64,000 bases of DNA from Oscillospiraceae bacterium (GTDB lineage: Bacteria; Bacillota; Clostridia; UBA1212; UBA1255), in contig SVJD01000005.1 of assembly GCA_015069165.1 (NCBI GenBank), positions 6,021 to 70,020 on the forward strand, read 5' to 3'. Under the pieces are notes generated by a model. It saw only the letters and a list, made by a program, of their open reading frames with translations, did no database searches and had not been told where the DNA came from. This document shows positions 538-64,000 of this stretch, in pieces (the first letter of the stretch is position 1; each line of letters begins with the position of its first letter). The position numbers and the translations under genes were made by a program.

Positions 538-1143
538 TTAATATACGCCTTTAAGTACAATGTCGTCCATTTCACAACCTGTAATGTCACATGCAGAAAC
601 AGCTATAGCAGATGCTTCATTGGCATCGAGAGATTCCGCAGAAACCGTAATGTACACACATTCGTTTTCAATAATTACAAATACATCATCATATCCTCTT
701 GCCGTAATATTCGTTTCAAGGTTCTCTTCGATTTGTGTAATTTCTCTAAGTGATTCAATTTTTGCAACGGCTTCTGCCACACTGTTTTCTCCGGAAGTTT
801 CGCTGCCTATAATTTCATTACAACTTTCTTCCGCTTCGCTTCGTTGATTTAATTTATTAAGCCTTACAGTTGCAAAATATTCTTCCTTATCATCAACTTT
901 AATAACACCGCTGCCTATATTTTCAATTTCACCTTCTGATACAACTTCGGAGCCGTCATCCTCTCCTATATCAGTATTCACATTAACATTGCCTTCTCCT
1001 GCCGGTTTTCCCGCCTGTGCACTTTGCGTGCCGGCATTCTGAACAACGGCAACTGCCAAAAGCACAAGACATACTGCTAAAGCAATAAGTCTTTTCGTTC
1101 TCATAGACATATTTTTAATTTTTTCCATAATATCAAATTTCAT
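538..1143 (-). CDS. spoIIIAH: stage III sporulation protein AH (SpoIIIAH-like)
   Basis: Last gene of a co-directional spoIIIA cluster. It has an N-terminal TM anchor followed by an acidic linker and a C-terminal globular domain. RBS AAAGGGG sits 8 nt upstream of the ATG. Confidence 0.7.
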   Translation of the reverse strand: MKFDIMEKIKNMSMRTKRLIALAVCLVLLAVAVVQNAGTQSAQAGKPAGEGNVNVNTDIGEDDGSEVVSEGEIENIGSGVIKVDDKEEYFATVRLNKLNQRSEAEESCNEIIGSETSGENSVAEAVAKIESLREITQIEENLETNITARGYDDVFVIIENECVYITVSAESLDANEASAIAVSACDITGCEMDDIVLKGVY

Positions 1144-1191
1144 ATTGCCAACCCCTTTAAGATTTTATTTGTTATTTATATATGCACCACA

Positions 1192-1752
1192 CTACCCCGT
1201 TATGCTGATTTTCCCCGGCGAAATACCGTAAAGTGCCATTAAAGTTTTAAGTATTTTTTCTTCAAGTATTTTACTCACACCGCCTTCCACGCACACGGCA
1301 ATCCCTTCGATTTCAGGCGCGATCTCCGAAAGCATTACAGCTTGTTCGTTGCCTTGCGAATCCTTTATAACAACTACATTCCCCTCTTTAACATCACGAT
1401 TTTCTTCCGCATGGTTATCGCCGTTCGACTCGGTAATAACTGACATATCGTTGTTTTCGTTGCGAGCCGGAATTTTGCTTCCTTGATTTTTCACATACAC
1501 CGCAACCGTAACTTTTTTTACCCCCTCTATACCTTTTAATACGCGTTCTATTTGCGCTTCATATTTTTCGCTGTAACTCATGCAAACCGTTTCTTTCTCA
1601 GGTTGCGTAAAATCCTCTTGCCCGACGGAATCCATGTTTTTCGCCTGACTGTTTTCTACGATATTCCCAATCAACAACAAAACAATTCCGGTAAGTACTA
1701 TAGCTATCTCAAATTTATAAAGCCGCAATTTAACATTTTTTAAAATCCCCAT
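1192..1752 (-). CDS. spoIIIAG: stage III sporulation protein AG
   Basis: Seventh position in the operon. Single N-terminal TM segment and a size typical of SpoIIIAG. RBS AAGGTGGGA. Confidence 0.75.
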   Translation of the reverse strand: MGILKNVKLRLYKFEIAIVLTGIVLLLIGNIVENSQAKNMDSVGQEDFTQPEKETVCMSYSEKYEAQIERVLKGIEGVKKVTVAVYVKNQGSKIPARNENNDMSVITESNGDNHAEENRDVKEGNVVVIKDSQGNEQAVMLSEIAPEIEGIAVCVEGGVSKILEEKILKTLMALYGISPGKISITG

Positions 1753-1754
1753 AA

Positions 1755-2351
1755 TTATTCATCCCACCTTATCATTATTTTGCTTTTATCTGTTCCGACA
1801 AGCTCCGAAACCATATCTTTAATTTCATTTTCATATACTTTCATATCTTCGTTGCCCGTACTTTCTTCTTTTTCTATTTTTATACCGTGCTTGTCTATAA
1901 CTATATTCGGTACCTCAATTTTATTAATCGAGGCCTCTTCTTTCTCCTCTTTTTTCTCTGAAATATTTAAAGCAACACTTAAAATCTGAGCAAAACTTTC
2001 CGACGACATATTTTCGTCTACGGTAATAATTATTTCTCTGCAAACATACTTTTTCTCTTTTAATGCTTTTTCTATTTCTTCCTTAATTCTGCTTTTATAA
2101 TGTTCTATAACCTGATGCTCCGCGCTGTCGTTTTGTGCTTGGTTTACAAGTTCGTTTTTCTCTGTTTCAAGCATAATTTTTTGACTTATTATTTCTGTTG
2201 TAAAGTCAGAAAGGGGCATTATAAGTATGCTTAAAAACACAAATGAAAGTGCAATTGTCGAGGCATTTCGTATATTGCTTTTCGGCAAAATATAACTCAC
2301 CACAGTAAACAAAATTGCCGCAACGCAAATCTTCACTACCCAATCAAGCAT
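1755..2351 (-). CDS. spoIIIAF: stage III sporulation protein AF
   Basis: Sixth position in the operon, with two N-terminal TM helices and a charged C-terminal domain. I prefer ATG at 2351 (after GAGGGGG) to the track's GTG at 2363, which abuts the RBS. Confidence 0.7.
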   Translation of the reverse strand: MLDWVVKICVAAILFTVVSYILPKSNIRNASTIALSFVFLSILIMPLSDFTTEIISQKIMLETEKNELVNQAQNDSAEHQVIEHYKSRIKEEIEKALKEKKYVCREIIITVDENMSSESFAQILSVALNISEKKEEKEEASINKIEVPNIVIDKHGIKIEKEESTGNEDMKVYENEIKDMVSELVGTDKSKIMIRWDE

Positions 2352-2355
2352 TCCG

Positions 2356-3264
2356 TCACACACCCCCTCGCACCAAAGTTACAAGCACCGCAACATTCAG
2401 AATACTCATTACACTCATAAGGGCTGTTATGCCCGTTATCATCATAAATGCGTCACCGACGTTTGTTATTGCGTTTGAAATTTTGGCATCTGCAACAGGC
2501 CGTATTAAGATACCTGCTATGCGGTACACAAGCACATGTGTTGCCATTTTTACGCAAGGAGCTATTGCAATCGACAAAACGCCTGTTACCGCCGCTATTC
2601 CTGCCGTGCTTTTAATCACCGATGCTCCGGCAAAAACCATATCGGCGCTTTCTGCCAAATATCGCCCTACAACCGGTACCATGGCACCTGTATATTTTAG
2701 CGTTCTCGATGCCATACTTGCTCTTGCTCCGGTCAATGCGCCTGACAATGTTGCTGTACAAGAAAAGACTATCATCATAATTCCGAGGCCCCAGTTAAAT
2801 ACAAATTTTACCATTCCTTTAACTCCGTCAAGGCTGAATTTATTGCTTACACTTGCACAGATGCCGATTATTGTATAAATAAGTGCAAGGGGCAAAAATA
2901 TTTCAGAGAGCAAAACCGCCGCACTTTGTGTGAGTGTTATAAAGACAGCTGCACCTGAAGCACCGCTTCCTACATCGCTTGCGCACAGCGCCGGAATGGA
3001 ACTCAACATTACCGTTCTGATTTCTTCTATTGTTTGTGTTGCGTTTTGTATAACATCTTTTATGTTTTCTACTATGGGAACGCACAATACGCATATTGCG
3101 GCAAAAGAAATTATATCTTTCAGACCGCCGTTTTGGTCTTCGGTCGTTGCCGAAAACAAAGAACACATATAGCTTGCAGATACAATCAAGAGTAATATGC
3201 CGCCCCCGGATTTGAACTGTATTGAAACTTCATTATTGATTAGATCTATAAATTGCTCCCACAC
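2356..3264 (-). CDS. spoIIIAE: stage III sporulation protein AE (polytopic membrane protein)
   Basis: Multi-TM protein at the fifth position in the operon. The track ORF (to 3450) overlaps spoIIIAD by 180 nt. GTG at 3264 is preceded by AGGGTG and lies just after the spoIIIAD stop at 3270. Confidence 0.8.
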   Translation of the reverse strand: MWEQFIDLINNEVSIQFKSGGGILLLIVSASYMCSLFSATTEDQNGGLKDIISFAAICVLCVPIVENIKDVIQNATQTIEEIRTVMLSSIPALCASDVGSGASGAAVFITLTQSAAVLLSEIFLPLALIYTIIGICASVSNKFSLDGVKGMVKFVFNWGLGIMMIVFSCTATLSGALTGARASMASRTLKYTGAMVPVVGRYLAESADMVFAGASVIKSTAGIAAVTGVLSIAIAPCVKMATHVLVYRIAGILIRPVADAKISNAITNVGDAFMMITGITALMSVMSILNVAVLVTLVRGGV

Positions 3265-3269
3265 TTTAA

Positions 3270-3659
3270 TCACCCTGCTAACGACTTTACGGTTTCTATA
3301 AGTGTTGCAGCCCACGGAACTGCCATCATAACAATAAATACCCTGCCTGCTGCTTCTATTTTTGCCGCAGTGGAATTTTCCCCAAAATCGCGGCACAGAG
3401 CCGACGAAAATTCCACCGTATATGCCGCCCCTATTATTTTTACTACGCATTTTACAGTTTCACTGCTAAGCTGAGAATTGTCGAAAAGTTTTCTTATAGA
3501 CTCAATCGCACCGCTTGCCGTGTTTAAAACTCCCACAAGCAAAAGTACGGAGCCTGCCGCCGTAATAAGCGGTACCATTTGACTTTGCATCCCTTTCAGC
3601 AAAACGATAAGCATTGATACGACTACGCCCGCAAGCGCTATTTTCAAAATTGTTTCCAT
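3270..3659 (-). CDS. spoIIIAD: stage III sporulation protein AD
   Basis: 129-aa four-TM protein, METILKIALAGVVVS..., with the typical SpoIIIAD size and position. Confidence 0.85.
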   Translation of the reverse strand: METILKIALAGVVVSMLIVLLKGMQSQMVPLITAAGSVLLLVGVLNTASGAIESIRKLFDNSQLSSETVKCVVKIIGAAYTVEFSSALCRDFGENSTAAKIEAAGRVFIVMMAVPWAATLIETVKSLAG

Positions 3660-6134: not shown

Positions 6135-7050
6135 TTTGAATCTCCTGTTTCTTTGCACTGCATACTTTATATACCATTACCATAGTAATGCATATCATAA
6201 CAACACTAAAAATTAAAATTACAACTTCTTCGATGAAAGTTACCATAATGGCTGATGGTATTCCCGAAATATTAAACATACTATGTATGATTATAGCTGC
6301 TAATATAGAACCGGATTGCTCATATACATACACCATAAACAACGAAATTGTTCCGGCGTAGAGAGCTTGTAAAATATTGCCGTGGTATATTCCGAATAGG
6401 AATGAAGTTACAACAGCTGCTGTAATTACAGTAAAATATTGCGTTGATTTAGTTTGCGTTTTTGTTAATGTTTTTATGATTTTTTTGATTGCGTTATATA
6501 TCAAGCCTCTGAACAGCAGTTCTTCTACGATGGGTGCGCAAATTCCGGTGGCAATCAATGTAAGGATTAAATTGCTTTCTTGGAAAACTGAAACGTTTTC
6601 TTGATTACCTTGTATCCAAGAATCAGGGAGTCTGTTTGCTATGAGATTAAGCCCTACATTCGAAGCAATTCCTATAAAAATTCCCAAAGCAACGGATAAT
6701 ACCGCAATCTTTCGGGTAGGAGATTTATATTCAAAGTCAATGGTTTTTGAAAAATTTTTCTTAATATGCACCAACATGAAAATTCCCAAAAACAAGACAA
6801 CAATAATTGAATACATCAATGATATATGTTGATTAAACATATTCATAGCTTTTTCTAAATGTTGTTCCTCGGTTAAATTTACATCTTCTGTCAATTTTAC
6901 AAAAATAAAAGAGAAAGCGGATTGAACTGCAAAGTTAATAGCCAAAAAAACAAAGAAATTAGCAAACGGAATTATAATTGCTTTTAAAATTGTTATTATG
7001 TTTAAGTACTTTTTTACTTTTTCTTCATTTTGATTATTTAGCTCTTCCAT
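6121..7050 (-). CDS. CPBP family intramembrane glutamic endopeptidase (CAAX protease / Abi family)
   Basis: Motif 1 EELLFRG and motif 2 FGIYHGN in a polytopic protein. ATG at 7050 is preceded by GGGAGGAG. Confidence 0.85.
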   Translation of the reverse strand: MEELNNQNEEKVKKYLNIITILKAIIIPFANFFVFLAINFAVQSAFSFIFVKLTEDVNLTEEQHLEKAMNMFNQHISLMYSIIVVLFLGIFMLVHIKKNFSKTIDFEYKSPTRKIAVLSVALGIFIGIASNVGLNLIANRLPDSWIQGNQENVSVFQESNLILTLIATGICAPIVEELLFRGLIYNAIKKIIKTLTKTQTKSTQYFTVITAAVVTSFLFGIYHGNILQALYAGTISLFMVYVYEQSGSILAAIIIHSMFNISGIPSAIMVTFIEEVVILIFSVVMICITMVMVYKVCSAKKQEIQSEEI

Positions 7051-7156
7051 ATTGTAAACTCCTCCCAAAACATGGTATAATAAACAAAATATGTTCACAA
7101 CAAGCTTAATTATATATAAATTTCATATAATTACAAGTTTTTAAGGAGTCAGCGTT

Positions 7157-7747
7157 ATGCAGCATACCGAAAATGTTTCGCGAGCCGAAGCACCTTTTGC
7201 AATTTTAAACAGAATCAAAGAAATATACGAAGAACGCGGCATGTGCATTGTTGCAATCGACGGAAACTCCGGCGCAGGCAAAAGCACTTTGGCAGCTCAT
7301 CTTGCTGCGGCATCTCGTGCTTCTTTGATACACACGGATGATTTCTTTCTTCCGACCGAATTGCGCACAGAAGAACGCCTCGATACTCCGGGCGGTAATA
7401 TCGATTATGTCAGATTCCAACAAGAAGTAATAAATGGTATTTCGTCAGGAAAAAGCTTTAATTACAAAGCATACTCTTGTGCAAATGGCGAGTATTCCGT
7501 AAAAAGAATAAAATGTTCTCCGATATATATCATAGAAGGTGTATACAGCCTTCATCCGATATGGCAAAACGCCATTGATTTGAAAGTTTTTATGCGTGTT
7601 GATTACGAAACTCAATTAAGCAGAATCCTCGGCCGCAGCGATGCGGAAAAGTTGAATATTTTTAAAAACAAATGGATTCCTATGGAAAATAAATATTTTG
7701 ATTTTTACAATATCGAAAGCCTTTGTGACATCATCGTATTTTCGTAA
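7157..7747 (+). CDS. uridine kinase-like P-loop nucleoside/nucleotide kinase
   Basis: P-loop GNSGAGKST, followed by DDFF and EG.Y.LH patterns typical of the uridine kinase / PRK family. RBS AAGGAG. Confidence 0.7.
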   Translation: MQHTENVSRAEAPFAILNRIKEIYEERGMCIVAIDGNSGAGKSTLAAHLAAASRASLIHTDDFFLPTELRTEERLDTPGGNIDYVRFQQEVINGISSGKSFNYKAYSCANGEYSVKRIKCSPIYIIEGVYSLHPIWQNAIDLKVFMRVDYETQLSRILGRSDAEKLNIFKNKWIPMENKYFDFYNIESLCDIIVFS

Positions 7748-7755
7748 AATTGCTA

Positions 7756-7784
7756 TTGACAGCTAAACAATAATCGTGTAAAAT
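7756..7784 (+). promoter_or_regulatory. sigma-A-type promoter for tRNA-Arg
   Basis: TTGACA (7756-7761), 17-nt spacer, TAAAAT (7779-7784). Confidence 0.45.
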
Positions 7785-7818
7785 ATGCGGCGTTGCTTAT
7801 CTTTTAAGCACTTCATAC

Positions 7819-7895
7819 GCACCCATAGCTCAATTGGATAGAGCGTCTGGCTACGGACCAGAAGGTTGTGGATTCGAGCTCTGCTGGGTGCGCCA
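7819..7895 (+). tRNA. tRNA-Arg (anticodon ACG)
   Basis: Acceptor GCACCCA/TGGGTGC; D-arm GCTC-AATTGGATA-GAGC; anticodon stem TCTGG/CCAGA with loop CTACGGA; encoded CCA. The T-stem GTGGA/TCTGC needs two G-U pairs. Confidence 0.85.
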
Positions 7896-7902
7896 ATAAA
7901 AA

Positions 7903-7940
7903 AGCCTTGTAAATGATTAGTTTACAAGGCTTTTAGTATT
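7903..7940 (+). terminator. rho-independent terminator after tRNA-Arg
   Basis: Stem AGCCTTGTAAA / TTTACAAGGCT with a 7-nt loop, followed by a T-rich tail. Confidence 0.7.
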
Positions 7941-8128
7941 TTCCGAGATTACATTTGAAAATTTTGTTAAAAGCTTCTGGTTTCCAAATCAAATGAATGA
8001 ACAGGAACATCGAATATCAACTATAGCGTTTCACAATAGCATATTGCGCATAATTTACAGTTATTTCAGCAATCAAAACATGGAGAAATATATAAAATCA
8101 TTACCTTATGGCGATAGGATCTAATAGC

Positions 8129-8158
8129 AAAAGCGAGGTGAATTTCACCTCGCTTTTG
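8129..8158. terminator. terminator hairpin downstream of fic
   Basis: Stem GCGAGGTG / CACCTCGC with loop AATTT, flanked by AAAA and TTTT. It lies 18 nt after the fic stop. Confidence 0.6.
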
Positions 8159-8175
8159 TAATGTTAATTATTGAT

Positions 8176-9309
8176 TTATGTGTCTTTTCGTAGTATCGAA
8201 AGATATTCTTCATACGCAAATACTCGATTGCGATTTGCGTTGTTGGTTTGAATTAAAATTCCCGCGTCCACCAATCTATTTACCGCAAGAGAAACTGTGC
8301 TGAATGCAAGATTTAATTCTTCTGCAGTTTTACCGATATCAATAATTGGATTTTGCTCAAGATAATCAAAAACAGCTCTGGCATTCTTTGCAGCTCTCCC
8401 CATCGCATCTATCTTTTTAATGTTTGCATCATGGAGTTCGGATAGTTTTTTGATTGTTTCAACCGATTCATCGGCTGACTCTTTAATAGCATTTAAGAAA
8501 AATTTTATCCACTGCTCGTAATTGTCTTTATTACGAACCTCACTCATGCGGTCATAATACTCAATTCGATTTTTCTTAAGATAGTATGATATATATAATG
8601 CAGGGGAATTTAACACCTTCTTATCCATCAAGAAAAGAGTAATTAAAAGTCTGCCAACGCGACCGTTACCATCAAGGAATGGGTGGATTGTTTCAAACTG
8701 GTAATGCAGTAAAGCCGCTTGAATAAGTAGGTCCAAAGAATCGTCAGAATTGATATACTCTTCCAAATCAGACATGGCATTTATCATATCCTCCGGATTC
8801 GGTGGAATATAACGTGCATTCTTTAGAGATGAATCACCAGCGCCAATCCAGTTTTGAGAAGTTCTGAATTCGCCTGGATTTTTCTCCTGTCCACGAACTC
8901 CTGACATTAAAACTTCATGCGTTTCTTTAATCAGTCTATTGCAGAGAGGAAGTGTGTTCATTCGTTCGAGCGCAAACTCTGTGGCTTTAATATAGTTCAC
9001 AACATCTGCCACATTTTGATTAGCATTCTTTTCTATTAATGGATCTAAAACATCTTCAAGTGTTGCTTGTGTGCCTTCAATTTGAGATGACAACAAAGCT
9101 TCCTTTCTAACATACATTGATACAAAAAGATTCATATTGGGGATATACAAAAAAATTGCATCCAACGTTGCCAATGCTTTAGTTGCACCGGTGAGAAGAA
9201 AAACCATTTCGTTATCCATATCAATTACAGGCGGCAATGGTGCAGGCCTAAACGATTTATACATTGCCTCCCCGCTTAAATTGCTTATATATTCTCCCGA
9301 TCTTTGCAT
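8176..9309 (-). CDS. Fic family protein (class II, N-terminal inhibitory helix; C-terminal winged-HTH-like region)
   Basis: Catalytic motif HPFLDGNGRVGR (HxFx[D/E]GNGRxxR). Inhibitory motif SSQIEG ([S/T]xxxE[G/N]) lies upstream in the same chain. ATG at 9309 sits 6 nt after GGAGGAA; the track start at 9324 is a TTG inside the RBS. Confidence 0.9.
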   Translation of the reverse strand: MQRSGEYISNLSGEAMYKSFRPAPLPPVIDMDNEMVFLLTGATKALATLDAIFLYIPNMNLFVSMYVRKEALLSSQIEGTQATLEDVLDPLIEKNANQNVADVVNYIKATEFALERMNTLPLCNRLIKETHEVLMSGVRGQEKNPGEFRTSQNWIGAGDSSLKNARYIPPNPEDMINAMSDLEEYINSDDSLDLLIQAALLHYQFETIHPFLDGNGRVGRLLITLFLMDKKVLNSPALYISYYLKKNRIEYYDRMSEVRNKDNYEQWIKFFLNAIKESADESVETIKKLSELHDANIKKIDAMGRAAKNARAVFDYLEQNPIIDIGKTAEELNLAFSTVSLAVNRLVDAGILIQTNNANRNRVFAYEEYLSILRKDT

Positions 9310-9341
9310 AAACGTTTCCTCCAAGTCGAAATTACATTTTA

Positions 9342-9370
9342 ATTATATGAATTTTATTTTGACTTGTCAA
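9342..9370 (-). promoter_or_regulatory. sigma-A-type promoter for fic
   Basis: On the minus strand: TTGACA (9370-9365), 17-nt spacer, TATAAT (9347-9342). Confidence 0.45.
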
Positions 9371-9430
9371 GCTAAATCAAAATAATCGTTACTCTTTTTT
9401 ACTTTTAATTTTGAGTTTAGAATATAGAAA

Positions 9431-9465
9431 GCCGGATGAACTTCTGTGTCCATCCGGCCTTTTAC
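9431..9465 (+). terminator. terminator-like hairpin with no upstream plus-strand gene
   Basis: Stem GCCGGATG / CATCCGGC with a 12-nt loop, then CTTTT. There is no cognate plus-strand gene upstream. Confidence 0.4.
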
Positions 9466-9683
9466 TATGTATTCCAACACCTCTCCTTAATAACAATTAA
9501 AGCCTAAAACAGCTTGTTTTCTCGAAATTTATTGGACAAAATCAGTGAAAAACTCAGTGTTTATGCGGTTTCATAGCTCTTGGTGTTATTATCCTGCGCT
9601 CATCAATTTTCTGTTTCACTCTTCAAGAATTTACTTTTCAAACTGCCTATGCTAAAATGAATAAAACTCTTTGGAGGCAAAAT

Positions 9684-55594: not shown

Positions 55595-56008
55595 TTAAGC
55601 ATTTAAAATTTTTTTCACTGACAAAATATTTTGTCCGTTTTTATACTCGTACATAATTTCGTCCATTAATTTCTTTACCATATATATACCAAGTCCGCCG
55701 ATTTGTCTTTCATCTGCCGAAAGTGTTATATCAGGTTCGGTTTGTTTTGTAGGGTCATAAGGTATACCTTCATCAATAAATGTTATAAGTACTGCCAAAG
55801 GATTCTCTGTAAATTCCACTTTTACAGTTACATTGCCATCAGAAAGATTATATGCGTAATGTGCAATATTTCCAAAAAGTTCATCAATAGCTATGTCAAT
55901 CTGCATTTGGACTTTTATGGGGCAATCAAAAGCTTCAAGTTGTTCATTTACAAAATCCGTAACAGTTTTAATATTTTCAACTGTAGCACAAACAGTTATC
56001 TCTTTCAT
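55595..56008 (-). CDS. anti-sigma-factor-type serine kinase (RsbW/SpoIIAB-like GHKL ATPase)
   Basis: 137 aa with an N-box-like DELFGNIAHYA, a G-box DEGIPYDP and an ATP-lid GGLGIYMV. A 4-nt overlap joins it to the upstream phosphatase gene. Confidence 0.85.
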   Translation of the reverse strand: MKEITVCATVENIKTVTDFVNEQLEAFDCPIKVQMQIDIAIDELFGNIAHYAYNLSDGNVTVKVEFTENPLAVLITFIDEGIPYDPTKQTEPDITLSADERQIGGLGIYMVKKLMDEIMYEYKNGQNILSVKKILNA

Positions 56009-57834
56009 TCAGCTTCTCCCTCCCCATTAAATTTAAAACACAACATAGTAATATCATCAAATTGAGGTACTTCGCCAACAAAAGAATCAACGTCGTTTTT
56101 GATTTCATCGCAGATTCCTCTTGTATCAAGATTCTCAATTTTTTGCAAAACATCAAGGAGACGACTTTCTCCGTAAAGTTCATTCTGAATATCCATCGCC
56201 TCTGTTACACCATCAGTGTAAAGATAAATAACATCACCTTTTTCAAGCTGATATTCATTCTTGCTGTAACGAATACCCTCCATACCTGCAAGTACAAAAT
56301 TTGCCCTCGATTTAAGAGTTGTAACACTTCCGTCAATATGCTTAATGACAGGTGGATTGTGGCCTGCATTCACGAAACTTATCATACCTGTTTTCGTATC
56401 TAAAAAGCCCATCCACACCGTAACAAACATACCGGCATCGTTGCTTTCACAAAGTTTTTCATTGGCAGTTGTAAAAACTTGTTCAATATCCATTCCCGAT
56501 TCCGCATAACTTTTAAGGAGTGTTTTTGAAGTCATCATAAACATTGCAGCCGGAATTCCTTTGCCTGAAACATCGGCAACAAGAAACGCCAGAGTGTCTT
56601 CGTCAACAAAATAGAAGTCATAGAAATCACCACCAACTTCTTTTGCTGTATACATTGCAGCACTGATTTCAAATTCATTACGGTTAGGATAAGGAGGAAA
56701 TACCGACGGCAATGCCGAATGTTGAATAGCTTTAGCAAATGCAAGTTCAGCATCAATACGAGCTTCCGCTTCTGAAATATATTTTTTAAGTGTATTTACG
56801 GTAGCATTTATATCATTTGAAAGAGCGTCAAACTCAATGCTGGAACGCACATCAACAGTCGTATTGAGATTACCTGCTGTTATGTCGGAAAGTGATTCAT
56901 TCACTCTGTAAATATTATCAACAACAAGGCGTTTTACAAGATAAAAAATCACAATAAACAAAGATGCAAAAACAATCAACTGCATGATTGTTGTGATACA
57001 CACAGAAACATTACGCGATAGAGCCGCCTCAATTTTAGGCATAACTGCAAAAATGTGATAACCTTCCGTCACTTGATGCATACAAAAACACGATTCTCCA
57101 TACACTTTAGCGGTAAAATTCTGTCTTTCAGGAACTTCCGAAGTATCAAAGCAAATTCCGGTAACACCAATATTTTGACCTTCATTACCATAGCGGTCAC
57201 TGATAATGTTCCCTTTTTCATCAACGATGATAATCGAACCGTTTTCTCCCACGTGGCGATTATGGGTGACACCAATCACAAATTCATCAATGTCTTTTTG
57301 AAAGCGTTCCGCTCCGTAACCTACTTGAACAAAACCTCCGTTTTCAAGGACAACTCCGCCGTATTTACGCGAGATTGACGCATCATAAGAAACAGGCTGA
57401 TAACTCTGCACATATTCCTTTTCACCCGAAAGCAAAACCATAAATTCTGCCGATTGCACTCCGCTTCTCATATCATAATTTAAAAAATAAGGATACGTGC
57501 TTGCAATGATGATTCCGGCATTATTTACGCAATTGATTTCTGTTACATCATATTTTTGGGTAAGTTCCGCAAGCAATTCTGAATTTATATTTTCTGATTT
57601 GTTTAATTCGTCTGCGATTTGATAAGAAAGTTTTAGCAAATTTTTATCGGAAGCATCAATAATATCTTCCTTGACATCCGAAATATTCAAAGATAGCAAC
57701 TGTACTGCGTTGTTTTTTGACAATTGGGTCTGAAAAACCCATAAAAATACCGTTGTTGCTAAAAAAGCAACAATTACAAGCACCAACAACCATTGTCTGA
57801 ATATTCCCGAAATCTTTTGCTTTTTATTTTTCAT
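56005..57834 (-). CDS. membrane sensor PP2C phosphatase (SpoIIE/RsbU family) with extracytoplasmic Cache-like region and HAMP
   Basis: Layout: TM (aa 14-34), an extracytoplasmic region of about 250 aa with two PAS/Cache-like segments (VNNAGIIIAST, IIIVDEKGNIISD), a second TM, a HAMP-like linker, then a PP2C core (EVGGDFYDF, FLVADVSGKG, LYTDGVTEA, DDITML). Confidence 0.85.
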   Translation of the reverse strand: MKNKKQKISGIFRQWLLVLVIVAFLATTVFLWVFQTQLSKNNAVQLLSLNISDVKEDIIDASDKNLLKLSYQIADELNKSENINSELLAELTQKYDVTEINCVNNAGIIIASTYPYFLNYDMRSGVQSAEFMVLLSGEKEYVQSYQPVSYDASISRKYGGVVLENGGFVQVGYGAERFQKDIDEFVIGVTHNRHVGENGSIIIVDEKGNIISDRYGNEGQNIGVTGICFDTSEVPERQNFTAKVYGESCFCMHQVTEGYHIFAVMPKIEAALSRNVSVCITTIMQLIVFASLFIVIFYLVKRLVVDNIYRVNESLSDITAGNLNTTVDVRSSIEFDALSNDINATVNTLKKYISEAEARIDAELAFAKAIQHSALPSVFPPYPNRNEFEISAAMYTAKEVGGDFYDFYFVDEDTLAFLVADVSGKGIPAAMFMMTSKTLLKSYAESGMDIEQVFTTANEKLCESNDAGMFVTVWMGFLDTKTGMISFVNAGHNPPVIKHIDGSVTTLKSRANFVLAGMEGIRYSKNEYQLEKGDVIYLYTDGVTEAMDIQNELYGESRLLDVLQKIENLDTRGICDEIKNDVDSFVGEVPQFDDITMLCFKFNGEGEAE

Positions 57835-57845
57835 AAAACATTCCT

Positions 57846-58142
57846 TTATTCAATCGTCAAAATATTACTGAATCCTGTTACTTCAAAAATTTCAGAGATA
57901 GTTTCGTTGACATTTCGTACAATCATTTTTCCTTGTTTATTCATTGTTTTTTGTGCAGAAAGAAGCACACGAAGTCCGGCCGAAGATAAATAATCAAGTG
58001 CCGCAAAATCAAAAACAAGTTTTTCAATACCGTTCAAGCTTTGATTAAGCTTAGCTTCAAGCTCGGGTGCAGTTGCGGTATCGAGCCTGCCTTCAAGAGC
58101 AATTATAAGTTCTCTTTCATTTATTGCTTTGTTTATATTCAT
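57846..58142 (-). CDS. STAS domain anti-sigma-factor antagonist (RsbV/SpoIIAA-like)
   Basis: 98 aa. The conserved phospho-acceptor context DYLSSAGLRVLL is present, as is the C-terminal FEVTGF pattern. Confidence 0.9.
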   Translation of the reverse strand: MNINKAINERELIIALEGRLDTATAPELEAKLNQSLNGIEKLVFDFAALDYLSSAGLRVLLSAQKTMNKQGKMIVRNVNETISEIFEVTGFSNILTIE

Positions 58143-58159
58143 TGTTCTTTCCTCACTTT

Positions 58160-59251
58160 TTATTTTATTTTTGCAATTATAAGATTTGTATATTCATCTT
58201 CGCTGATTTCGGAATACTCGATACTTTCCGCCGCGTTCTGCGCAATTTTCAGAGAGAGAATATTGTCTGAATTTATAGGATTGAAAGTTTTACCATTATA
58301 TTTGGCCTGCATTAAAATACTTTCTTCTTCCTGTGAATATTCAACCGTTATATTCAGTTTAAATTCATTTGACATTTCAGCAATGATAATCTGTACACAA
58401 AGTTCTTCAAATACCGATTGCATATGGTAAATCGACTTTTGAGAAATACCGCTTCTCCTGCCAAATTCCTCAAGACTTGTGTTAAAACCAATAAAGTCAA
58501 AGTTCTTTGAAGTTATATCTTTTTCAAATACTTTAACACGTTTAATAAAACGAGCAGTCTTTTCTCTTTGCGGATTGTCAAATATCTGCTCCGGCGTGCC
58601 TTCTTCGTAAATTCCGCCATCATCCATATAGAACACTCTGTTTGCAATTTCACGTGCAAAACGCATTTCGTGGGTTACAATCATCATTGTAAGTCCTTTT
58701 TTGCCCAAATCCTTAATAACAGTCTGAACCTCTCCCACCATTGTAGGGTCAAGAGCTGATGTAGGCTCGTCAAATAGTATTATTTCAGGATCCATGGCAA
58801 GTGTTCTTGCAATGGCAACTCTTTGCTTTTGACCACCTGAAAGTTCATCAGGGTAATTAAAAGCTTTGTCGGCAAGGCCCACGGTGCGAAGAAGTTGCAT
58901 TCCGTCATCATACGCCTGTTGCTTTGATTTGCCGAGCAAATCCATTGGTGCCGCCATAATATTTTCGATAATATTAAGGTGATTAAAAAGGTTGAACGAC
59001 TGGAAAACCATTCCCATTTTTTGCCTTATTTTATTAATATCGCATTTTTTGTCAGTTATACAATTATCACCAACCCATATTTCGCCGGAAGTGGGAGTTT
59101 CAAGCCTGTTTATACACCTTATAAGTGTGGATTTCCCCGTACCGGAAGGTCCGATAATCGAAATTATGTCGCCTCTGTTTATCTCAACACTTACATCCTT
59201 TAAGGGCGTAGCGTTGGGATATTCTTTTCTTAAATGATTGATTTTTATCAT
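58160..59251 (-). CDS. polar amino acid ABC transporter ATP-binding protein with an unusual ~120-aa C-terminal extension
   Basis: Walker A GPSGTGKST, signature LSGGQKQR, Walker B ILFDEPTSALD and H-loop VTHEM lie within aa 1-242. Residues about 245-363 are extra compared with GlnQ/HisP-type ATPases. Confidence 0.9.
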   Translation of the reverse strand: MIKINHLRKEYPNATPLKDVSVEINRGDIISIIGPSGTGKSTLIRCINRLETPTSGEIWVGDNCITDKKCDINKIRQKMGMVFQSFNLFNHLNIIENIMAAPMDLLGKSKQQAYDDGMQLLRTVGLADKAFNYPDELSGGQKQRVAIARTLAMDPEIILFDEPTSALDPTMVGEVQTVIKDLGKKGLTMMIVTHEMRFAREIANRVFYMDDGGIYEEGTPEQIFDNPQREKTARFIKRVKVFEKDITSKNFDFIGFNTSLEEFGRRSGISQKSIYHMQSVFEELCVQIIIAEMSNEFKLNITVEYSQEEESILMQAKYNGKTFNPINSDNILSLKIAQNAAESIEYSEISEDEYTNLIIAKIK

Positions 59252-61494
59252 CTTACTACCCCCTTCAAAATACTTTTATTTTTTCGTCTTTTTGGGTCTG
59301 TTTTTTTCTTAGCAATACCCATAAGCATTGTAACTATCCATATTAGAGCAAAGTATATAAGCGCAACGGCAATGAGCGGGAAAAAGGCTTCATACGTATT
59401 ACTTCTTATAATATCTCCCATTCTCGTAAGGTCATTTACAGCAATATAGCCGACAATTGACGTTGCTTTAATAAGACCTATAATTTCTCCTGTGTAGGCA
59501 GGTATAAACATTTTCATTGCCTGAGGAAGGATAATTTTAAAAAATGTTTTGTTTCTGCTGTAACCAAGTGCATAGGCTGCCTCTGTTTGCCCTTTATCAA
59601 CATTTTCGACTGTTATATCAAGTTGCCCGTAAACAAACGAGCTGAATGTCATAATAAACCCTATAATAGCTACGATTATTCCGCTTATATCTGCCTTGGC
59701 AAAAACCAAATAGTATAAAATCATCAAGATAACAAGAATTGGCGTACCTGAAATAATGATTGAATGGACTTTCGCAAGTTTCTTGGCAATCAACGATAGA
59801 AGTTTATATTTCGAACGGGAAATCATATAGAAAACAAAACCGAATACCGTGCCGCCGACTACAGAGCAAAAGCTGATTAAAACCGTTACGGCAAGACCTT
59901 TGACAATGAGTTTCCAACGACTCTCACGTATAAATGTTTTTTCAAAGCTTTCTTTTATTGACGCAAGAAAATCCGTTTCGGCGTTATCATTTTCATAAAT
60001 TACCATAATTATATCAGACACCATATACGGCTCACAAAAATTAACACTTTCTTTTCGTTCATCTGTTATATAGATACCGCAGGAAACTACATCATATTTA
60101 CCCTCAGTAAGACCTGCCACACCTGCAGTCCATTGAGCATCTTCAAATTTAGGCTTATAACCGTATTTCTCGCAGAACATATAGAGAATTTCAACTTCAA
60201 AACCTGCATGTTCATTGTTTAACATATACACAAAAGGTTTTCTTGACGAATCAAGTGCAATTTTCAACTCTTTTTCATTTGCTGACAAATCCTGAATTTT
60301 GATATTTTCTGTTGGTTCAACCGTTCCGCACCATTTGTCCCAAATTTTATCAAGAGTTCCTTCTGCGCGAAGTTCGTCAAGGTATGCATTCATTTGAGTT
60401 TGAAGTTCACTGCCCTTTTCGTTCTTTCCGAAAGCATAGCCGATTTCCACATTGTAGTCCGGCACTTTAATATAAGAAAGACCTTTGTCCGTTCTTTTTG
60501 CAGCGTTGTAATTTGGCATATCAAGGAGGAATCCGTCAACCTTACCCTGTTTTACGCACTGGAAAAGATCCGGGAATGATTGATACGCATCAATATTAGC
60601 ATCCGGGAAAAGTTCTTTTGAATAACCGTCATAAATCGAGCCGACTATAACACCGAGAGTTGCGTTTTTGAAATCATCAAGAGTTCTTACTGCAGAACCT
60701 GAAGATTTAACAACGAGCACCATTTCATCGGAATAATAAACATCCGAAAAATCAAGACTGTTTTTTCTTTCTTCGTTAATGGTTGCGCCGGAAGCACCAA
60801 TATCATAAATACCACTTTTTATTCCTGAAAGAATTCCTGTAAAAGACGAGTCGAAAAACTCAATGTTATATCCGTACTCTCCTGCAAATTTAGTTAAAAA
60901 TTCTATATCATAACCTGCATATTTTGCATTTTTTATATACACAAAAGGTTTTTGTTCAGAACAAATCGCAACACGTATTGTGCCGTTTTTGCCGCTTAAC
61001 TTCTCGTAATCTGCAAATTCCGAAGGTTCGCTTGAAGAAAACCACTTTTCTTGAAGCTGTTTAAGTTTGCCGTTGGTCTTTTGATTTTTTATGAATTCGT
61101 TCAATTGCTTTTGCAAATCAAGTTTTTCACCTTTATTGAACATAAAACCGTAATTACTCACAGCAATCGGTTCTTCAACACGTTTAACTGCTATTCCTTC
61201 CCATTGCATTGCACATAAAACAGAATTTTCAGTTGAAAAAGTTTCAATTTTATCTGACATAAGCGCCATAACAGAATCTGAAGGATTGGAATACTCAACA
61301 TGCTCTGCATCCGGCAAAAGTTCTTTGAGAAGGTTCGACTGTATAGAACCTGCTACCGAACCTACTTTAGATTGACTGAAATCAGAAATACGAGTTTTAT
61401 TCGTGTCGGAATCCTTAACCTCGGTTGTGTTACAACCTGTAAGAGACAACAGTAAAATCACGGCAGATAACAACACCACAAAAAATCTTTTCAT
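59248..61494 (-). CDS. fused amino acid ABC transporter substrate-binding domains plus permease (lipoprotein)
   Basis: Lipobox LTGC. It contains a partial SBP module, a complete SBP_bac_3 module, a second partial module and then a HisM/GlnP-type permease (EAAYALGYS EAA loop). ATG at 61494 sits 9 nt after AAGGAGG. Confidence 0.85.
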   Translation of the reverse strand: MKRFFVVLLSAVILLLSLTGCNTTEVKDSDTNKTRISDFSQSKVGSVAGSIQSNLLKELLPDAEHVEYSNPSDSVMALMSDKIETFSTENSVLCAMQWEGIAVKRVEEPIAVSNYGFMFNKGEKLDLQKQLNEFIKNQKTNGKLKQLQEKWFSSSEPSEFADYEKLSGKNGTIRVAICSEQKPFVYIKNAKYAGYDIEFLTKFAGEYGYNIEFFDSSFTGILSGIKSGIYDIGASGATINEERKNSLDFSDVYYSDEMVLVVKSSGSAVRTLDDFKNATLGVIVGSIYDGYSKELFPDANIDAYQSFPDLFQCVKQGKVDGFLLDMPNYNAAKRTDKGLSYIKVPDYNVEIGYAFGKNEKGSELQTQMNAYLDELRAEGTLDKIWDKWCGTVEPTENIKIQDLSANEKELKIALDSSRKPFVYMLNNEHAGFEVEILYMFCEKYGYKPKFEDAQWTAGVAGLTEGKYDVVSCGIYITDERKESVNFCEPYMVSDIIMVIYENDNAETDFLASIKESFEKTFIRESRWKLIVKGLAVTVLISFCSVVGGTVFGFVFYMISRSKYKLLSLIAKKLAKVHSIIISGTPILVILMILYYLVFAKADISGIIVAIIGFIMTFSSFVYGQLDITVENVDKGQTEAAYALGYSRNKTFFKIILPQAMKMFIPAYTGEIIGLIKATSIVGYIAVNDLTRMGDIIRSNTYEAFFPLIAVALIYFALIWIVTMLMGIAKKKTDPKRRKNKSILKGVVR

Positions 61495-61525: not shown

Positions 61526-61554
61526 ATTTTAGAACGCATGATTTTTTTTGTCAA
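61526..61554 (-). promoter_or_regulatory. sigma-A-type promoter of the ABC / partner-switching operon
   Basis: On the minus strand: TTGACA (61554-61549), 17-nt spacer, TAAAAT (61531-61526). The leader is short, leaving no room for a riboswitch. Confidence 0.45.
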
Positions 61555-61751: not shown

Positions 61752-63410
61752 ATGAATATATCTTCCCTTCAACAGGCCAGATATCAGTACCAACCAAAAT
61801 TGCCCGGTATGCTCAGAAACGGTATTTCTGATATATGCGTAAAAACGGGTGCCCCTACTGAGAGTGTGGCAGACCAAGAAAAAATCAAATCTCTTTTCCC
61901 TAATACTTATGGTAAAAATGAGATTACTTTCCAAAAAGGAAGCAACACTTCAGAAGCTAAAAAGCAAGTTGTAGGTGTTATTCTCTCCGGCGGACAAGCT
62001 CCCGGCGGACACAACGTTATTTGCGGTCTTTATGACGCTTTGAAAGCAACTGACAAAGACAATGTGCTCTACGGATTTAAAGGTGGTCCCAGTGGTCTTT
62101 TAGAAGACAGCTTCGTAATTTTTGATGATGAATATATCAATCAATATCGCAACACAGGCGGTTTTGATATTATCGGTTCAGGCCGTACAAAGCTCGAAAC
62201 AGAAGAACAATTTGCTGTAGTTGCGGAAGTTTGCAAGAAGCACGGTATTACTGCTATTGTTATTATCGGCGGTGACGATTCAAACACTAACGCTGCAGTG
62301 CTTGCTGAATATTTCGCAGCTCACAACAGCGGCGTACAAGTTATCGGTTGCCCTAAGACAATTGACGGCGACTTGAAAAATGAAGATATCGAATGTTCTT
62401 TCGGTTTCGATACAGCTACTAAAACTTACAGCGAAATCGTAGGAAATATCGGACGTGATGCTAACTCTGCAAAGAAATATTGGCATTTCGTTAAAGTAAT
62501 GGGCCGCTCGGCATCACACGTTGCTTTGGAGACAGCTCTTCAAACACAGCCCAACATCTGCCTTATCGGTGAAGAAGTTGCAGCTAAAAAAATGTCTTTG
62601 GCACAAATCACTGATTACATTGCTGATTCTGTTGCTAATCGTGCTTCAAACGGATGTAATTTCGGTGTTGCCGTAATTCCCGAGGGAATTGTTGAGTTCG
62701 TTCCTGAATTTTCTATACTTATTGCAGAAATCAACGAGCTTTTGGCAGGCGAAAAAGCTGATGCTTTCAATGCTCTTCCCTCTTGGGCTGACAAATACGC
62801 TTTCATCAAAGCCGGTTTAACAAAAGAATCTATGGCAGTTTTCGAAATTTTGCCTGAGGCTATTCAGCAACAGCTTTTCTTGGATCGTGACCCCCACGGT
62901 AACGTACAAGTTTCTTTGATTGAGTCAGAAAAGCTTTTCTCTGCTATGGTTAAAGAAAACTTGGCAGCTCGTAAAGCAGCCGGCACTTATAAGGGCAAAT
63001 TCTCCCCCATTCACCATTTCTTGGGATATGAGGGACGTTGTGCATTCCCTTCAAATTTCGACGCTGACTACTGCTATTCATTAGGCTATAACGCATTTAT
63101 GCTTATTCAATACGGTTTCAACGGATATCTTTCCAAGGTTTCAAATTTGAGCAAACCTGCTGAAGAATGGATTGCAGGCGGTATGCCCATAACAAAGATG
63201 ATGAACATCGAAAGACGTCACGGCCATGACAAACCTGTTATCCGCAAAGCTCTCGTTGAGCTTGACAGCAAGCCTTTCAAATATTTCGAAGCGAACAGAG
63301 AAAAATGGGCTGTTGAAACATGCTACGTATTCCCCGGTGCTATTCAGTACTTCGGACCCAGCGAAGTTTGCGATACAACAACAAAAACATTGGCTTTGGA
63401 AAAGGCTTAA
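61752..63410 (+). CDS. pfp: diphosphate--fructose-6-phosphate 1-phosphotransferase (PPi-dependent phosphofructokinase)
   Basis: PFK fold with the PPi-type residues: GGDDSNT (Asp instead of Gly) and PKTIDGDL (Lys instead of Gly). MGR motif present; 552 aa long form. Confidence 0.9.
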
Positions 63411-63426
63411 GCAAAGGATTAATCAC

Positions 63427-63465
63427 AAAGGGTTATAGTGGATTGCCCACTATAACCCTTTATTT
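63427..63465. terminator. bidirectional terminator between pfp and the toxin gene
   Basis: 14-bp perfect stem AAGGGTTATAGTGG / CCACTATAACCCTT with loop ATTGC and a T-rich tail. The right arm overlaps the last codons of the minus-strand toxin gene. Confidence 0.7.
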
Positions 63466-63776
63466 TCAAGTCTGCGTTCAGCTTCTTTATAAACTTCTTC
63501 GTCATCCCGGACGGATATTACAATTATCTTCATTTTTTCCTTGTCTCTAACCAAAGAATACACAACCCTGTATCCAAGATTGCGTAATTTAATTTTATAA
63601 AAACCACTCAATTTTGATGCCACATGATTTCCCAACGGCTTTCCGATTCCATCGGGTGGAGGCAATGGATGTTCTGCCGTCTTTTCGATCGCTTTCAAAA
63701 TAAGTTTACGATTATACGGATCCAGACGTTTTAAATCACGTTGAGCCTCTTTAATATATTCTATCTTCCATTTCAT
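63450..63776 (-). CDS. type II toxin-antitoxin system RelE/ParE family toxin
   Basis: 108 aa. The pattern W.I.Y...A..DL..L......I...I..L...P...G..L.G.L.G.Y..R.G.YR..Y is typical of RelE/StbE. It lies 12 nt downstream of an antitoxin-like gene. Confidence 0.8.
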   Translation of the reverse strand: MKWKIEYIKEAQRDLKRLDPYNRKLILKAIEKTAEHPLPPPDGIGKPLGNHVASKLSGFYKIKLRNLGYRVVYSLVRDKEKMKIIVISVRDDEEVYKEAERRLENKGL

Positions 63777-63788
63777 ACCAAGGGCTCC

Positions 63789-64000
63789 TTAATCAATATC
63801 AACTTCTACATCGGCCAAATCTTCATCGGTGATACCTAATTCTTTCATTATTTCTTCATGAGAAACATTGTCATCATCATTATTTATCGCAACACGCTTT
63901 TCAGCTTCTGCTTTCAATGCATAATCAGAAAGCATTTCAGTCAGCATTTCATATTGAGTCGGAGAGACAAGCACACAAGCCGGGCGATTGTTTTTCACTA
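63789..64000 (-). CDS. Phd/YefM-type antitoxin (partial, start beyond window edge)
   Basis: RPACVLVSPTQYEMLTEML matches the Phd/YefM core, and the C-terminal tail is acidic. The reading frame is open to the window end, so the apparent GTG at 63998 is probably internal. Confidence 0.7.
   Translation of the reverse strand, partial: VKNNRPACVLVSPTQYEMLTEMLSDYALKAEAEKRVAINNDDDNVSHEEIMKELGITDEDLADVEVDID

Follow-up and report, generated by a model that had tools for sequence, protein, structure and literature searches.

Organization of the locus

The locus considered here lies within a 64,000-nucleotide stretch of DNA from an Oscillospiraceae bacterium (contig SVJD01000005.1, positions 6,021 to 70,020 of the forward strand), hereafter called the window. 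It consists of five co-directional genes, which open reading frame (ORF) calling places on the minus strand between positions 61554 and 55555. The first two are predicted to encode a polar amino-acid importer of the GlnPQ type, which belongs to the ATP-binding cassette (ABC) transporters, and the other three a partner-switching module consisting of a STAS protein, a PP2C phosphatase and an RsbW-like kinase. The importer ATPase ends in an extra domain that is predicted to be a kinase-dead paralogue of the operon's own kinase, and is a candidate docking site for the STAS protein. The features of the operon are as follows.

61526..61554, minus strand: sigma-70-type promoter-like site, TTGACA-17-TAAAAT, 11/12 matches
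59248..61494, minus strand: gene 1, SBD-permease of 748 amino acids, with lipobox LTGC, lipoprotein-type substrate-binding domains (SBD; SBP_bac_3) and an ABC permease (BPD_transp_1); GlnP-like, polar amino-acid family
58160..59251, minus strand: gene 2, ABC ATPase of 363 amino acids
58541..59251, minus strand: nucleotide-binding domain of the ATPase, residues 1-237; its Walker A, signature, Walker B and H-loop motifs are all canonical
58160..58540, minus strand: C-terminal domain of the ATPase, residues 238-363 plus stop codon, a predicted degenerate RsbW/SpoIIAB fold and candidate STAS docking site
57846..58142, minus strand: gene 3, STAS protein of 98 amino acids, single domain
56005..57834, minus strand: gene 4, SpoIIE/PP2C phosphatase of 609 amino acids, with the order transmembrane helix, dCache, transmembrane helix, HAMP, PPM (residues ~390-605)
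57007..57729, minus strand: sensor region of the phosphatase, residues ~36-276, a double Cache between the two transmembrane helices
55595..56008, minus strand: gene 5, RsbW-like HATPase_c_2 kinase of 137 amino acids
55555..55585, minus strand: intrinsic terminator, 7 G-C pairs in a 14-bp stem, with a run of T after it

Genes 1 and 2 overlap by 4 nt, gaps of 17 nt and 11 nt precede genes 3 and 4, and genes 4 and 5 again overlap by 4 nt. The gene order and junction lengths given in an earlier reading of the letters alone (the sequence-only reading) are confirmed. The same five products (748, 363, 98, 609 and 137 amino acids) were returned by an independent gene caller from 19 metagenome contigs with an identical ATPase. 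That reading had also proposed one promoter and one terminator for the operon, and a strong promoter-like site and a strong terminator are indeed present at its two ends. A AAAGGAGG ribosome-binding site and then the ATG of gene 1, at 61494, follow ~30 nt downstream of the promoter-like site. The further statement that no room is left for internal promoters is correct for the intergenic gaps but does not extend to the genes themselves, where promoter-like hexamers occur at chance level (31, against 25.2 +/- 5.4 in shuffled sequence). Such hexamers neither support nor exclude internal starts. Terminator-like matches within the genes are likewise as frequent as in shuffled sequence.

A predicted pseudokinase domain on the importer ATPase

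The ATPase matches the GlnQ model (E 1e-83, residues 1-239) and the solved ArtN structure (4yms, E 3e-82). Its 363 residues extend ~120 beyond any characterised relative; ATPases of the GlnPQ type have ~240-260 residues and no further domain. The GlnQ, TcyN, EhuA, HisP and ArtP models, as well as all solved homologues, cover only residues 1-239, and the PDB structures related to the N-terminal 240 residues include MetN and OpuA. The tail, a domain of 125 residues, is thus absent from all characterised relatives of GlnQ, ArtP and HisP, and had not been remarked on in the sequence-only reading.

Residues 259-326 have a Pfam match to HATPase_c_2 that stays below threshold (E 0.046; 14.2 bits, the cut-off being 27.4). 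Modelled by AlphaFold from nine sequences, residues 238-363 reached a predicted local distance difference test (pLDDT) score of 95.3 and have the topology strand-helix-helix-strand-strand-helix-strand-strand. In a Foldseek search of the PDB with this model the top 21 matches are all RsbW-type anti-sigma kinases. The best is UsfX (TM 0.80, E 1e-6) from 8ih8, where it is in complex with its STAS partner RsfB, and further matches include SpoIIAB-SpoIIAA (1th8/1tid), RsbW-RsbV (6m36) and SiaB-SiaC (6kko), which are also complexes with STAS partners. The RsbW/SpoIIAB fold predicted for the tail is one that STAS antagonists are known to bind.

The tail is also related to the kinase encoded three genes downstream. 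Alignment of a profile of 18 tails with one of 12 co-encoded kinases (hhalign) gave a probability of 92% and E 5.8e-7 over 109 columns. In this alignment the N-box Asn is replaced by Gln and the G1 Asp by Tyr, and 13 residues are deleted, including the ATP lid and the GGLG motif. The N, G1 and G2 ATP-binding boxes that are invariant in the kinase family are thus lost in the tail. Pairwise BLASTP of tail against kinase was not significant (E 0.25), so the kinship is visible only by profile-profile and fold comparison; a profile of the tail searched against PDB sequences had RsbW as its best relevant match at an unusable E of 0.21. Because the residues and the lid for ATP binding are lost and the Pfam score falls below the gathering threshold, the tail is best described as a divergent pseudokinase and not as a working member of HATPase_c_2. 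Sequence and model together identify it as a kinase-dead paralogue of the gene 5 kinase that is joined to the motor of the transporter.

Its most conserved stretch is the N-terminal strand and helix, ITSKDFDFIGFNTSLEEFGR, the SpoIIAB equivalent of which takes part in dimer and partner contacts. Across families the tail stays on the ATPase with 53-73% identity, and it is clearly under purifying selection.

The other four proteins of the operon

The gene 1 product matches SBP_bac_3 (E 2e-59) and BPD_transp_1 (E 9e-19), with transmembrane segments from about residue 528. Upstream of these lies the substrate-binding portion, in which residues 173-392 form the central substrate-binding domain. The C-terminal half of this domain is resembled by residues 22-172 (E 2e-13) and its N-terminal half by residues 393-527 (E 3e-22). 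This pattern suggests that residues 22-527 (59914-61431) hold two permuted domain equivalents in place of simple tandem domains.

The STAS protein matches the STAS family (E 8e-18) and the anti-sigma antagonist model TIGR00377 (E 2e-21). Its loop reads YLSSAGLR, in which Ser54, aligned with the phospho-serine of SpoIIAA, and the following AGLR are invariant in 86 of 86 family members collected. The kinase matches HATPase_c_2 at E 5e-20, and its family keeps E43 and N47 of the N box, D79-x-G81 of the G1 box and G104-G-L-G107 of the G2 box without exception. The phosphatase matches SpoIIE/PP2C over the full length of the domain (E 1.4e-50) and keeps the metal-binding and acidic PPM motifs GGDFYD, DVSGKG, TDG and DDIT. 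All three proteins therefore appear, by their phospho-acceptor or catalytic motifs, to form an intact module, and the serine context and the GHKL-type ATP-binding features that had been read from the letters alone are both borne out.

The hydrophobic segments of the phosphatase, at residues ~13-35 and 277-300, bracket an extracytoplasmic region. Pfam matches to HAMP (E 0.004) and dCache_1 are weak. An AlphaFold model of the sensor region from 22 homologues has a pLDDT of 87.5, and its top Foldseek matches are the dCache domains of PscC, Tlp3, Mlp24, Mlp37 and PctA/C (E 1e-10 to 1e-7), with global TM values of 0.35-0.46 that are low partly since the model includes the membrane helices. One homologue has a precomputed match to PF02743, and one is named 'cache and HAMP domain-containing'. 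A profile of the region found no match among PDB sequences. In dCache_1AA domains amino acids are bound through a motif of the distal module, YxxxxRxWY ... Y ... D (PMC8915833). This pattern has no match in the sensor of the phosphatase, which contains no Trp between the two transmembrane helices, and an amino-acid ligand is for these reasons not indicated. The Cache-like region recognised by the sequence-only reading is thus present, but the amino-acid signal attributed to it is unsupported.

Distribution and gene context of domain-bearing ATPases

An initial word-indexed search for tail homologues returned just 18 matches, mostly gene fragments. An exhaustive profile search of 1.84 billion representative proteins, clustered at 50% identity, extended the family to 392 clusters with E <= 1e-3, of which 145 reach E <= 1e-10. 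Most of the matches listed are gene fragments. In those of ~360-380 residues the domain is C-terminal, as in the ATPase described here, and the full-length ones examined are ABC amino-acid ATPases. Of eight longer proteins checked by Pfam, all are SBD-permease-ATPase or permease-ATPase fusions except one, which shows only SBP_bac_3.

A genome scan with one genome per species yielded 63 loci with a domain-bearing ATPase, which were annotated with hidden Markov models (HMMs) from the window proteins; individual loci are given L numbers below. The hosts are uncultured Acutalibacteraceae, Oscillospiraceae, Lachnospiraceae and Peptococcaceae, Phascolarctobacterium (Negativicutes) and Tissierella. 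Where at least 500 bp downstream of the ATPase gene was available, the next gene encodes a STAS protein in 15 of 52 loci. Twenty-one loci are well flanked (at least 5 kb upstream and at least 3 kb downstream), and these contain a small STAS gene in 13 cases, a PP2C gene in 11 and a kinase gene in 11. In L016, which is not among the 11, PP2C and kinase genes lie at the edge of the locus. In a STAS-seeded sample, two of four loci have a 363-amino-acid domain-bearing ATPase directly upstream of the STAS gene. Conservation of the gene order had been named as a comparative check by the sequence-only reading: the order recurs, with STAS as the next gene in the proportion given, but it is not universal, as eight of the 21 well-flanked loci have no small STAS gene. 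The linkage of STAS and transporter is strong and not obligatory. By our estimate, which assumes few STAS genes per genome, the adjacency would be well above chance.

The position of the module varies. It lies upstream of the transporter in L009-L011 and is interleaved with it in L054, while L044 contains two domain-bearing ATPases and two STAS genes. At L001 a deletion remnant of the transporter at 6566-7328, also found in L002-L004, comprises the last 50 permease codons and a 218-amino-acid ATPase fragment. The fragment runs from Walker B onward and includes the pseudokinase domain; it is the same protein in all four, on contigs from at least four samples.

The same domain on MATE and SDF transporters

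The domain is also found on transporters of other classes. In L042 a 592-amino-acid MatE protein ends in the domain (E 4e-7, HMM), with STAS genes on both sides. A kinase-seeded metagenome scan, in which 41 loci of at least 6 kb were annotated, produced further cases. Eight of these loci encode a MatE-sized protein with a degenerate copy of the domain. The MatE assignment was confirmed by Pfam for the four checked (L084, L088, L108 and L139), three of which also match HATPase_c_2 (E 1e-5 to 6.5e-7), and no Pfam family was matched by the MatE-sized candidate in L095 (434 amino acids). In five of these eight loci the gene for this protein directly follows the STAS gene and is followed by those for PP2C and kinase.

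Four additional MatE-sized proteins have a C-terminal copy that keeps the N box, the G1 box and part of the G2 box:

L119:1283-3055
L101:511-2259
L090:238-2049
L122:2062-3819

Those of L119 and L101 match both MatE and HATPase_c_2 by Pfam (HATPase_c_2 E 4e-15 and 1e-13), and in L119 and L122 the same locus encodes a second MATE-sized protein with a degenerate copy. The copies that keep their ATP boxes may represent an active kinase tethered to the transporter. Finally, an SDF-family symporter in L040 carries a copy of the domain at its N-terminus (hhalign 85%, E 6e-6). In total a fused transporter is present in ~1/3 of kinase-seeded loci with long flanks. The occurrence of the docking domain on MATE and SDF proteins suggests a general device for bringing transporters under a STAS switch.

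Sigma factors

The sequence-only reading had noted that no sigma factor gene is present in the operon or in the rest of the window, and this was borne out. Two probes from B. subtilis were confirmed by Pfam (SigF with regions 2, 3 and 4; SigW with regions 2 and 4 and the extracytoplasmic function (ECF) model), and neither found a sigma-70-family protein by phmmer in any window reading frame of at least 50 codons. Pfam identified eight ORFs of the window with a sigma-like size as other proteins. A stage III sporulation cluster is present at 538-3450 on the minus strand of the window, with SpoIIIAH and SpoIIIAF recognised by Pfam. The organism is accordingly an endospore former and must encode sporulation sigma factors outside the window.

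Co-occurrence with a sigma factor in other genomes was also raised by the sequence-only reading. A sigma gene is within reach in only one of the 63 loci with a domain-bearing ATPase. Several kinase-seeded loci have an ECF-like sigma gene beside the module, as follows; two of these genes were checked and confirmed by Pfam.

L072:15578-16138
L087:9445-9939
L099:10573-11121
also in L073-75, L079, L083, L105 and L119

Peptidase_C39 ABC exporter pairs accompany the sigma gene in L072-75, L079 and L083, and the sigma gene of L099/100 comes after a single-chain 5TMR-LYT-dCache-PP2C-kinase fusion. Among the sigma-linked kinase-seeded loci, L119 is the only one in which a domain-bearing transporter was detected. 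The STAS-PP2C-kinase module family thus seems to serve sigma outputs in some genomes, and the module evidently works as a general-purpose switch for several outputs. The window's own genome may encode a second target, such as a sigma factor elsewhere.

Proposed mechanism and alternatives

On balance, and by a modest measure, it is probable that the importer is gated post-translationally by its own partner-switching module, through docking of the STAS protein on the pseudokinase domain of the ATPase. Unphosphorylated STAS would bind the pseudokinase domains, which would hang below the ATPase dimer, much as RsbV binds RsbW or RsfB binds the kinase-dead UsfX/RsbW1. Docking would alter the ease with which the nucleotide-binding domains close and thereby switch transport. 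The free kinase would phosphorylate Ser54 and release the STAS protein, and the dCache-HAMP-PP2C phosphatase would restore its active form on sensing a ligand outside the cell, which is probably something other than an amino acid. As to the direction of the switch, there is a weak lean toward STAS binding turning import on, by analogy with MlaB, which is needed for MlaF function. The suggestion of the sequence-only reading that the transporter is the non-sigma output of the module therefore remains plausible, given the homology of tail and kinase and the recurrent linkage; its amino-acid-sensing component is unsupported.

A broader reading is offered more tentatively and falls slightly short of probable. 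It holds that the RsbW-fold pseudokinase is a portable docking module, not recognised before, which in gut Clostridia and some Negativicutes places at least three classes of transporter (ABC amino-acid importers, MATE exporters and an SDF symporter) under direct post-translational control by one Ser-phosphorylated STAS switch. The switch would be fed by sensor phosphatases with extracellular dCache or 5TMR-LYT regions, and would constitute a form of transport control parallel to, and evolved from, anti-sigma partner switching.

Several observations weigh against the proposed gating. The eight well-flanked loci without a small STAS gene lack one within ~8 kb. The STAS family is far larger than that of the docking domain, with at least 7999 clusters (90% identity, E <= 1e-10) against 392 for the tail (50% identity), so most of its members must have other partners. 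The 86 STAS sequences are uniformly 55-80% identical and form no context-specific clades. No fusion of STAS to a transporter or to the domain, of the Rosetta-stone kind, exists among the best 120 STAS relatives, all of which are stand-alone proteins of 97-112 amino acids. In one lineage (L001-L004) intact STAS, PP2C and kinase genes are kept beside the truncated transporter remnant, and in other organisms modules with kinases 64-73% identical to that of the window adjoin ECF-like sigma genes. One-to-one pairing of a STAS protein with each docking-domain transporter was also considered and is unsupported, as there are no clades by gene context.

Some of these observations would be expected if the genes were merely co-transcribed and the module regulated something else, with the tail an ordinary appendage comparable to MetN C2 or the MalK regulatory domain, its RsbW fold a relic that binds a metabolite or nothing. 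The loci without a STAS gene, the vastly greater size of the STAS family and the persistence of the module beside a truncated ATPase all point in this direction, as do the ~2/3 of long-flanked kinase-seeded loci that show no fused transporter. Even so this explanation is unlikely, since three unrelated classes of transporter carry the same fold and in each case lie beside STAS, PP2C and kinase genes, the adjacency of STAS is estimated (with the assumption given above) to be far above chance, and the tail is clearly under purifying selection across the families in which it remains attached to the ATPase.

A little less likely is that the tail pairs with the free kinase through the RsbW-type dimer interface, in which case the state of the transporter would control the kinase, or the kinase would phosphorylate the transporter, and the STAS protein would act on another target. 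Dimerisation is obligatory for RsbW and SpoIIAB proteins, RsbW paralogues can form heterodimers, as documented for RsbW1-RsbW3 (PMC7693655), one operon encodes the domain and the kinase homologous to it, and the part of the tail that is most conserved is the N-terminal strand and helix ITSKDFDFIGFNTSLEEFGR. However, the two ATPase copies of a transporter already supply two domains able to homodimerise, and the gene directly adjoining those of domain-bearing transporters is STAS and not the kinase. Moreover, L042 and L044 have several domain-bearing transporters and STAS genes but one kinase.

Least likely is that the transporter itself is the sensor and the tail a tethered anti-sigma factor, which would hold a sigma factor encoded elsewhere at the idle transporter (cf. 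MalK-MalT) until released by STAS or by the transport cycle: proteins of the RsbW fold classically have a sigma factor as partner, UsfX, which is the closest match in structure, is a kinase-negative anti-sigma factor, ECF-like sigma genes adjoin the related modules, and a spore former is likely to have more sigma factors outside the window, but classical partner-switching systems have the sigma gene in the same operon, whereas the window has none, domain-bearing ATPase loci have one nearby in a single case, and the sigma-linked loci other than L119 are without a detected domain-bearing transporter.

Flanking regions and other observations

The operon is bounded on one side by a divergent PFK-family gene (61752..63410, plus strand) and on the other by a convergent gene, and is for this reason regarded as an isolated unit. 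No Rfam element was found in the operon leader. Control by a riboswitch or other leader was dropped, as all Rfam matches were sub-threshold and most of them lie at the terminator hairpin. At 63450-63998, on the minus strand of the window, adjacent ORFs of 108 and 69 amino acids resemble, from sequence alone, a RelE/ParE-type toxin and its antitoxin.

Several features of the related loci are recorded here. ORFs of 99-105 amino acids with a double-glycine leader (LSDDALDAVTGG followed by TGTDTVV) and Cys in the mature part occur at the following positions:

L152:3867-4184
L151:6684-6983
L153:6604-6921
L033:12384-12662

In L151-L153 they lie beside pairs of ~728-amino-acid ABC exporters (one with Peptidase_C39), directly by STAS-PP2C-kinase modules, and in L152 the exporter pair also adjoins a domain-bearing amino-acid importer. 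A secreted peptide may be the signal at loci of this type. The same idea was considered for the window and rejected, as the window has no homologue of the leader peptides or of a C39 exporter.

Proteins of 393-421 amino acids combine an N-terminal STAS domain with an APH-type phosphotransferase (PF01636), and in L038 and L041 the gene comes just after the module kinase:

L038:8199-9392
L041:11061-12326
L056:14939-16147
L114:9045-10226

Phosphatase and kinase are joined in a single chain in two ways. The first is the fusion of L099 (7565-10408) and L100 mentioned above, with 947 amino acids and the order 5TM-5TMR_LYT, dCache, SpoIIE and HATPase_c_2; the second consists of SpoIIE and HATPase_c_2 in 747-752 amino acids and is found in L151-L153 at 7294-9552. 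In L154 (13133-14102) six tandem genes for 46-61 amino acids, which may be a peptide family, follow a 357-amino-acid gene ~4 kb downstream of an operon like that of the window.

Comparison with known systems

The module resembles the RsbU-RsbV-RsbW-sigmaB and SpoIIE-SpoIIAA-SpoIIAB-sigmaF switches of Bacillus in having a STAS protein with a phosphorylatable Ser, a GHKL kinase and a PP2C phosphatase, encoded by small overlapping genes in one operon. It differs in that the operon has no sigma gene, and in that the RsbW-fold binder appears to be split into an active free kinase and a kinase-dead copy fused to the ATPase. A similar division of labour is known from mycobacteria. In M. smegmatis the kinase-negative RsbW1, the UsfX homologue, binds the STAS protein RsfB, which is phosphorylated by the separate RsbW2 (PMC7693655). 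Both arrangements thus have one STAS protein, a kinase-dead RsbW-fold binder and a separate RsbW-fold kinase. In the mycobacterial SigF system, however, the kinase-dead protein is free-standing and holds a sigma factor, whereas here it is the C-terminal domain of an ATPase.

Regulatory domains that follow the nucleotide-binding domain and are placed to control dimer closure are present in MetN (C2), MalK and OpuA (CBS). They have other folds and bind metabolites, ions, cyclic di-AMP or the proteins EIIA and MalT. None is an RsbW fold, and none is tied to a STAS phospho-switch. To our knowledge there are few cases of post-translational control of bacterial ABC importers (MalK, MetN, ModC, OpuA, MlaFB), and none acts by reversible phosphorylation of a dedicated partner.

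The closest precedent for STAS acting on an ABC ATPase is the MlaFEDB system. The E. coli STAS protein MlaB binds the ATPase MlaF, with a conserved Thr at the interface and a phosphomimetic that weakens binding (PMC7367683). As here, a single-domain STAS protein is encoded with an ABC ATPase, and in Mla the binding is established. The window STAS protein matches the MlaB model weakly (E 1.6e-4, the cut-off being 90 bits). The two systems differ in several respects. MlaB binds the helical subdomain of the nucleotide-binding domain, and an RsbW-like domain is missing from MlaF; MlaB has no known kinase or phosphatase and its phosphorylation is hypothetical, while here genes for both enzymes are present; and Mla is a Gram-negative lipid transporter and not an amino-acid importer.

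Direct control of an enzyme by a HAMP-containing membrane PP2C, a kinase and a STAS protein is found in SiaABCD of P. aeruginosa (a diguanylate cyclase) and in HenR/All4160 of Anabaena (a glycosyltransferase; bioRxiv 10.64898/2026.04.08.717354). Here the output would instead be a transporter, and unlike the targets in those systems it has an RsbW-like docking domain of its own. Among NCBIfam names SiaA fits the phosphatase best, at 63.7 bits against a cut-off of 700, and the operon contains no GGDEF protein that could be an output of the SiaABCD type. Chlamydia RsbU (6mab) is likewise a partner-switching PP2C with a periplasmic sensor like a double Cache. It ranks 43rd among the fold matches of the sensor and is a distant structural relative (TM 0.25) with another ligand and output.

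In open-access full text, where absence is not proof, neither an ABC or MATE transporter with an RsbW-like domain nor an importer controlled by a partner switch was found to be described. In a 2021 review of single-domain STAS proteins, transporters come up solely with reference to SLC26/SulP. The sequence-only reading was aware of no described case with an ABC importer as output, which agrees with the open-access literature, but STAS action on an ABC ATPase as such has its precedent in MlaB-MlaF.

If the proposed gating is correct, a disabled anti-sigma kinase fold on transporters would allow a STAS phospho-switch to act on transport in seconds and not by way of transcription. It would provide a concrete output for the widespread 'sigma-less' partner-switching modules of gut anaerobes, and an answer to the question, raised by the work on MlaFB, of whether STAS phosphorylation ever regulates an ABC transporter. 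Some 400 protein clusters now named just 'amino acid ABC transporter ATP-binding protein' would be open to sharper annotation. Non-sigma partner switches, STAS proteins on ABC ATPases and C-terminal regulatory domains on importer ATPases are each known singly. What is new is their combination through a fused, predicted pseudokinase docking domain, and its spread over several classes of transporter.

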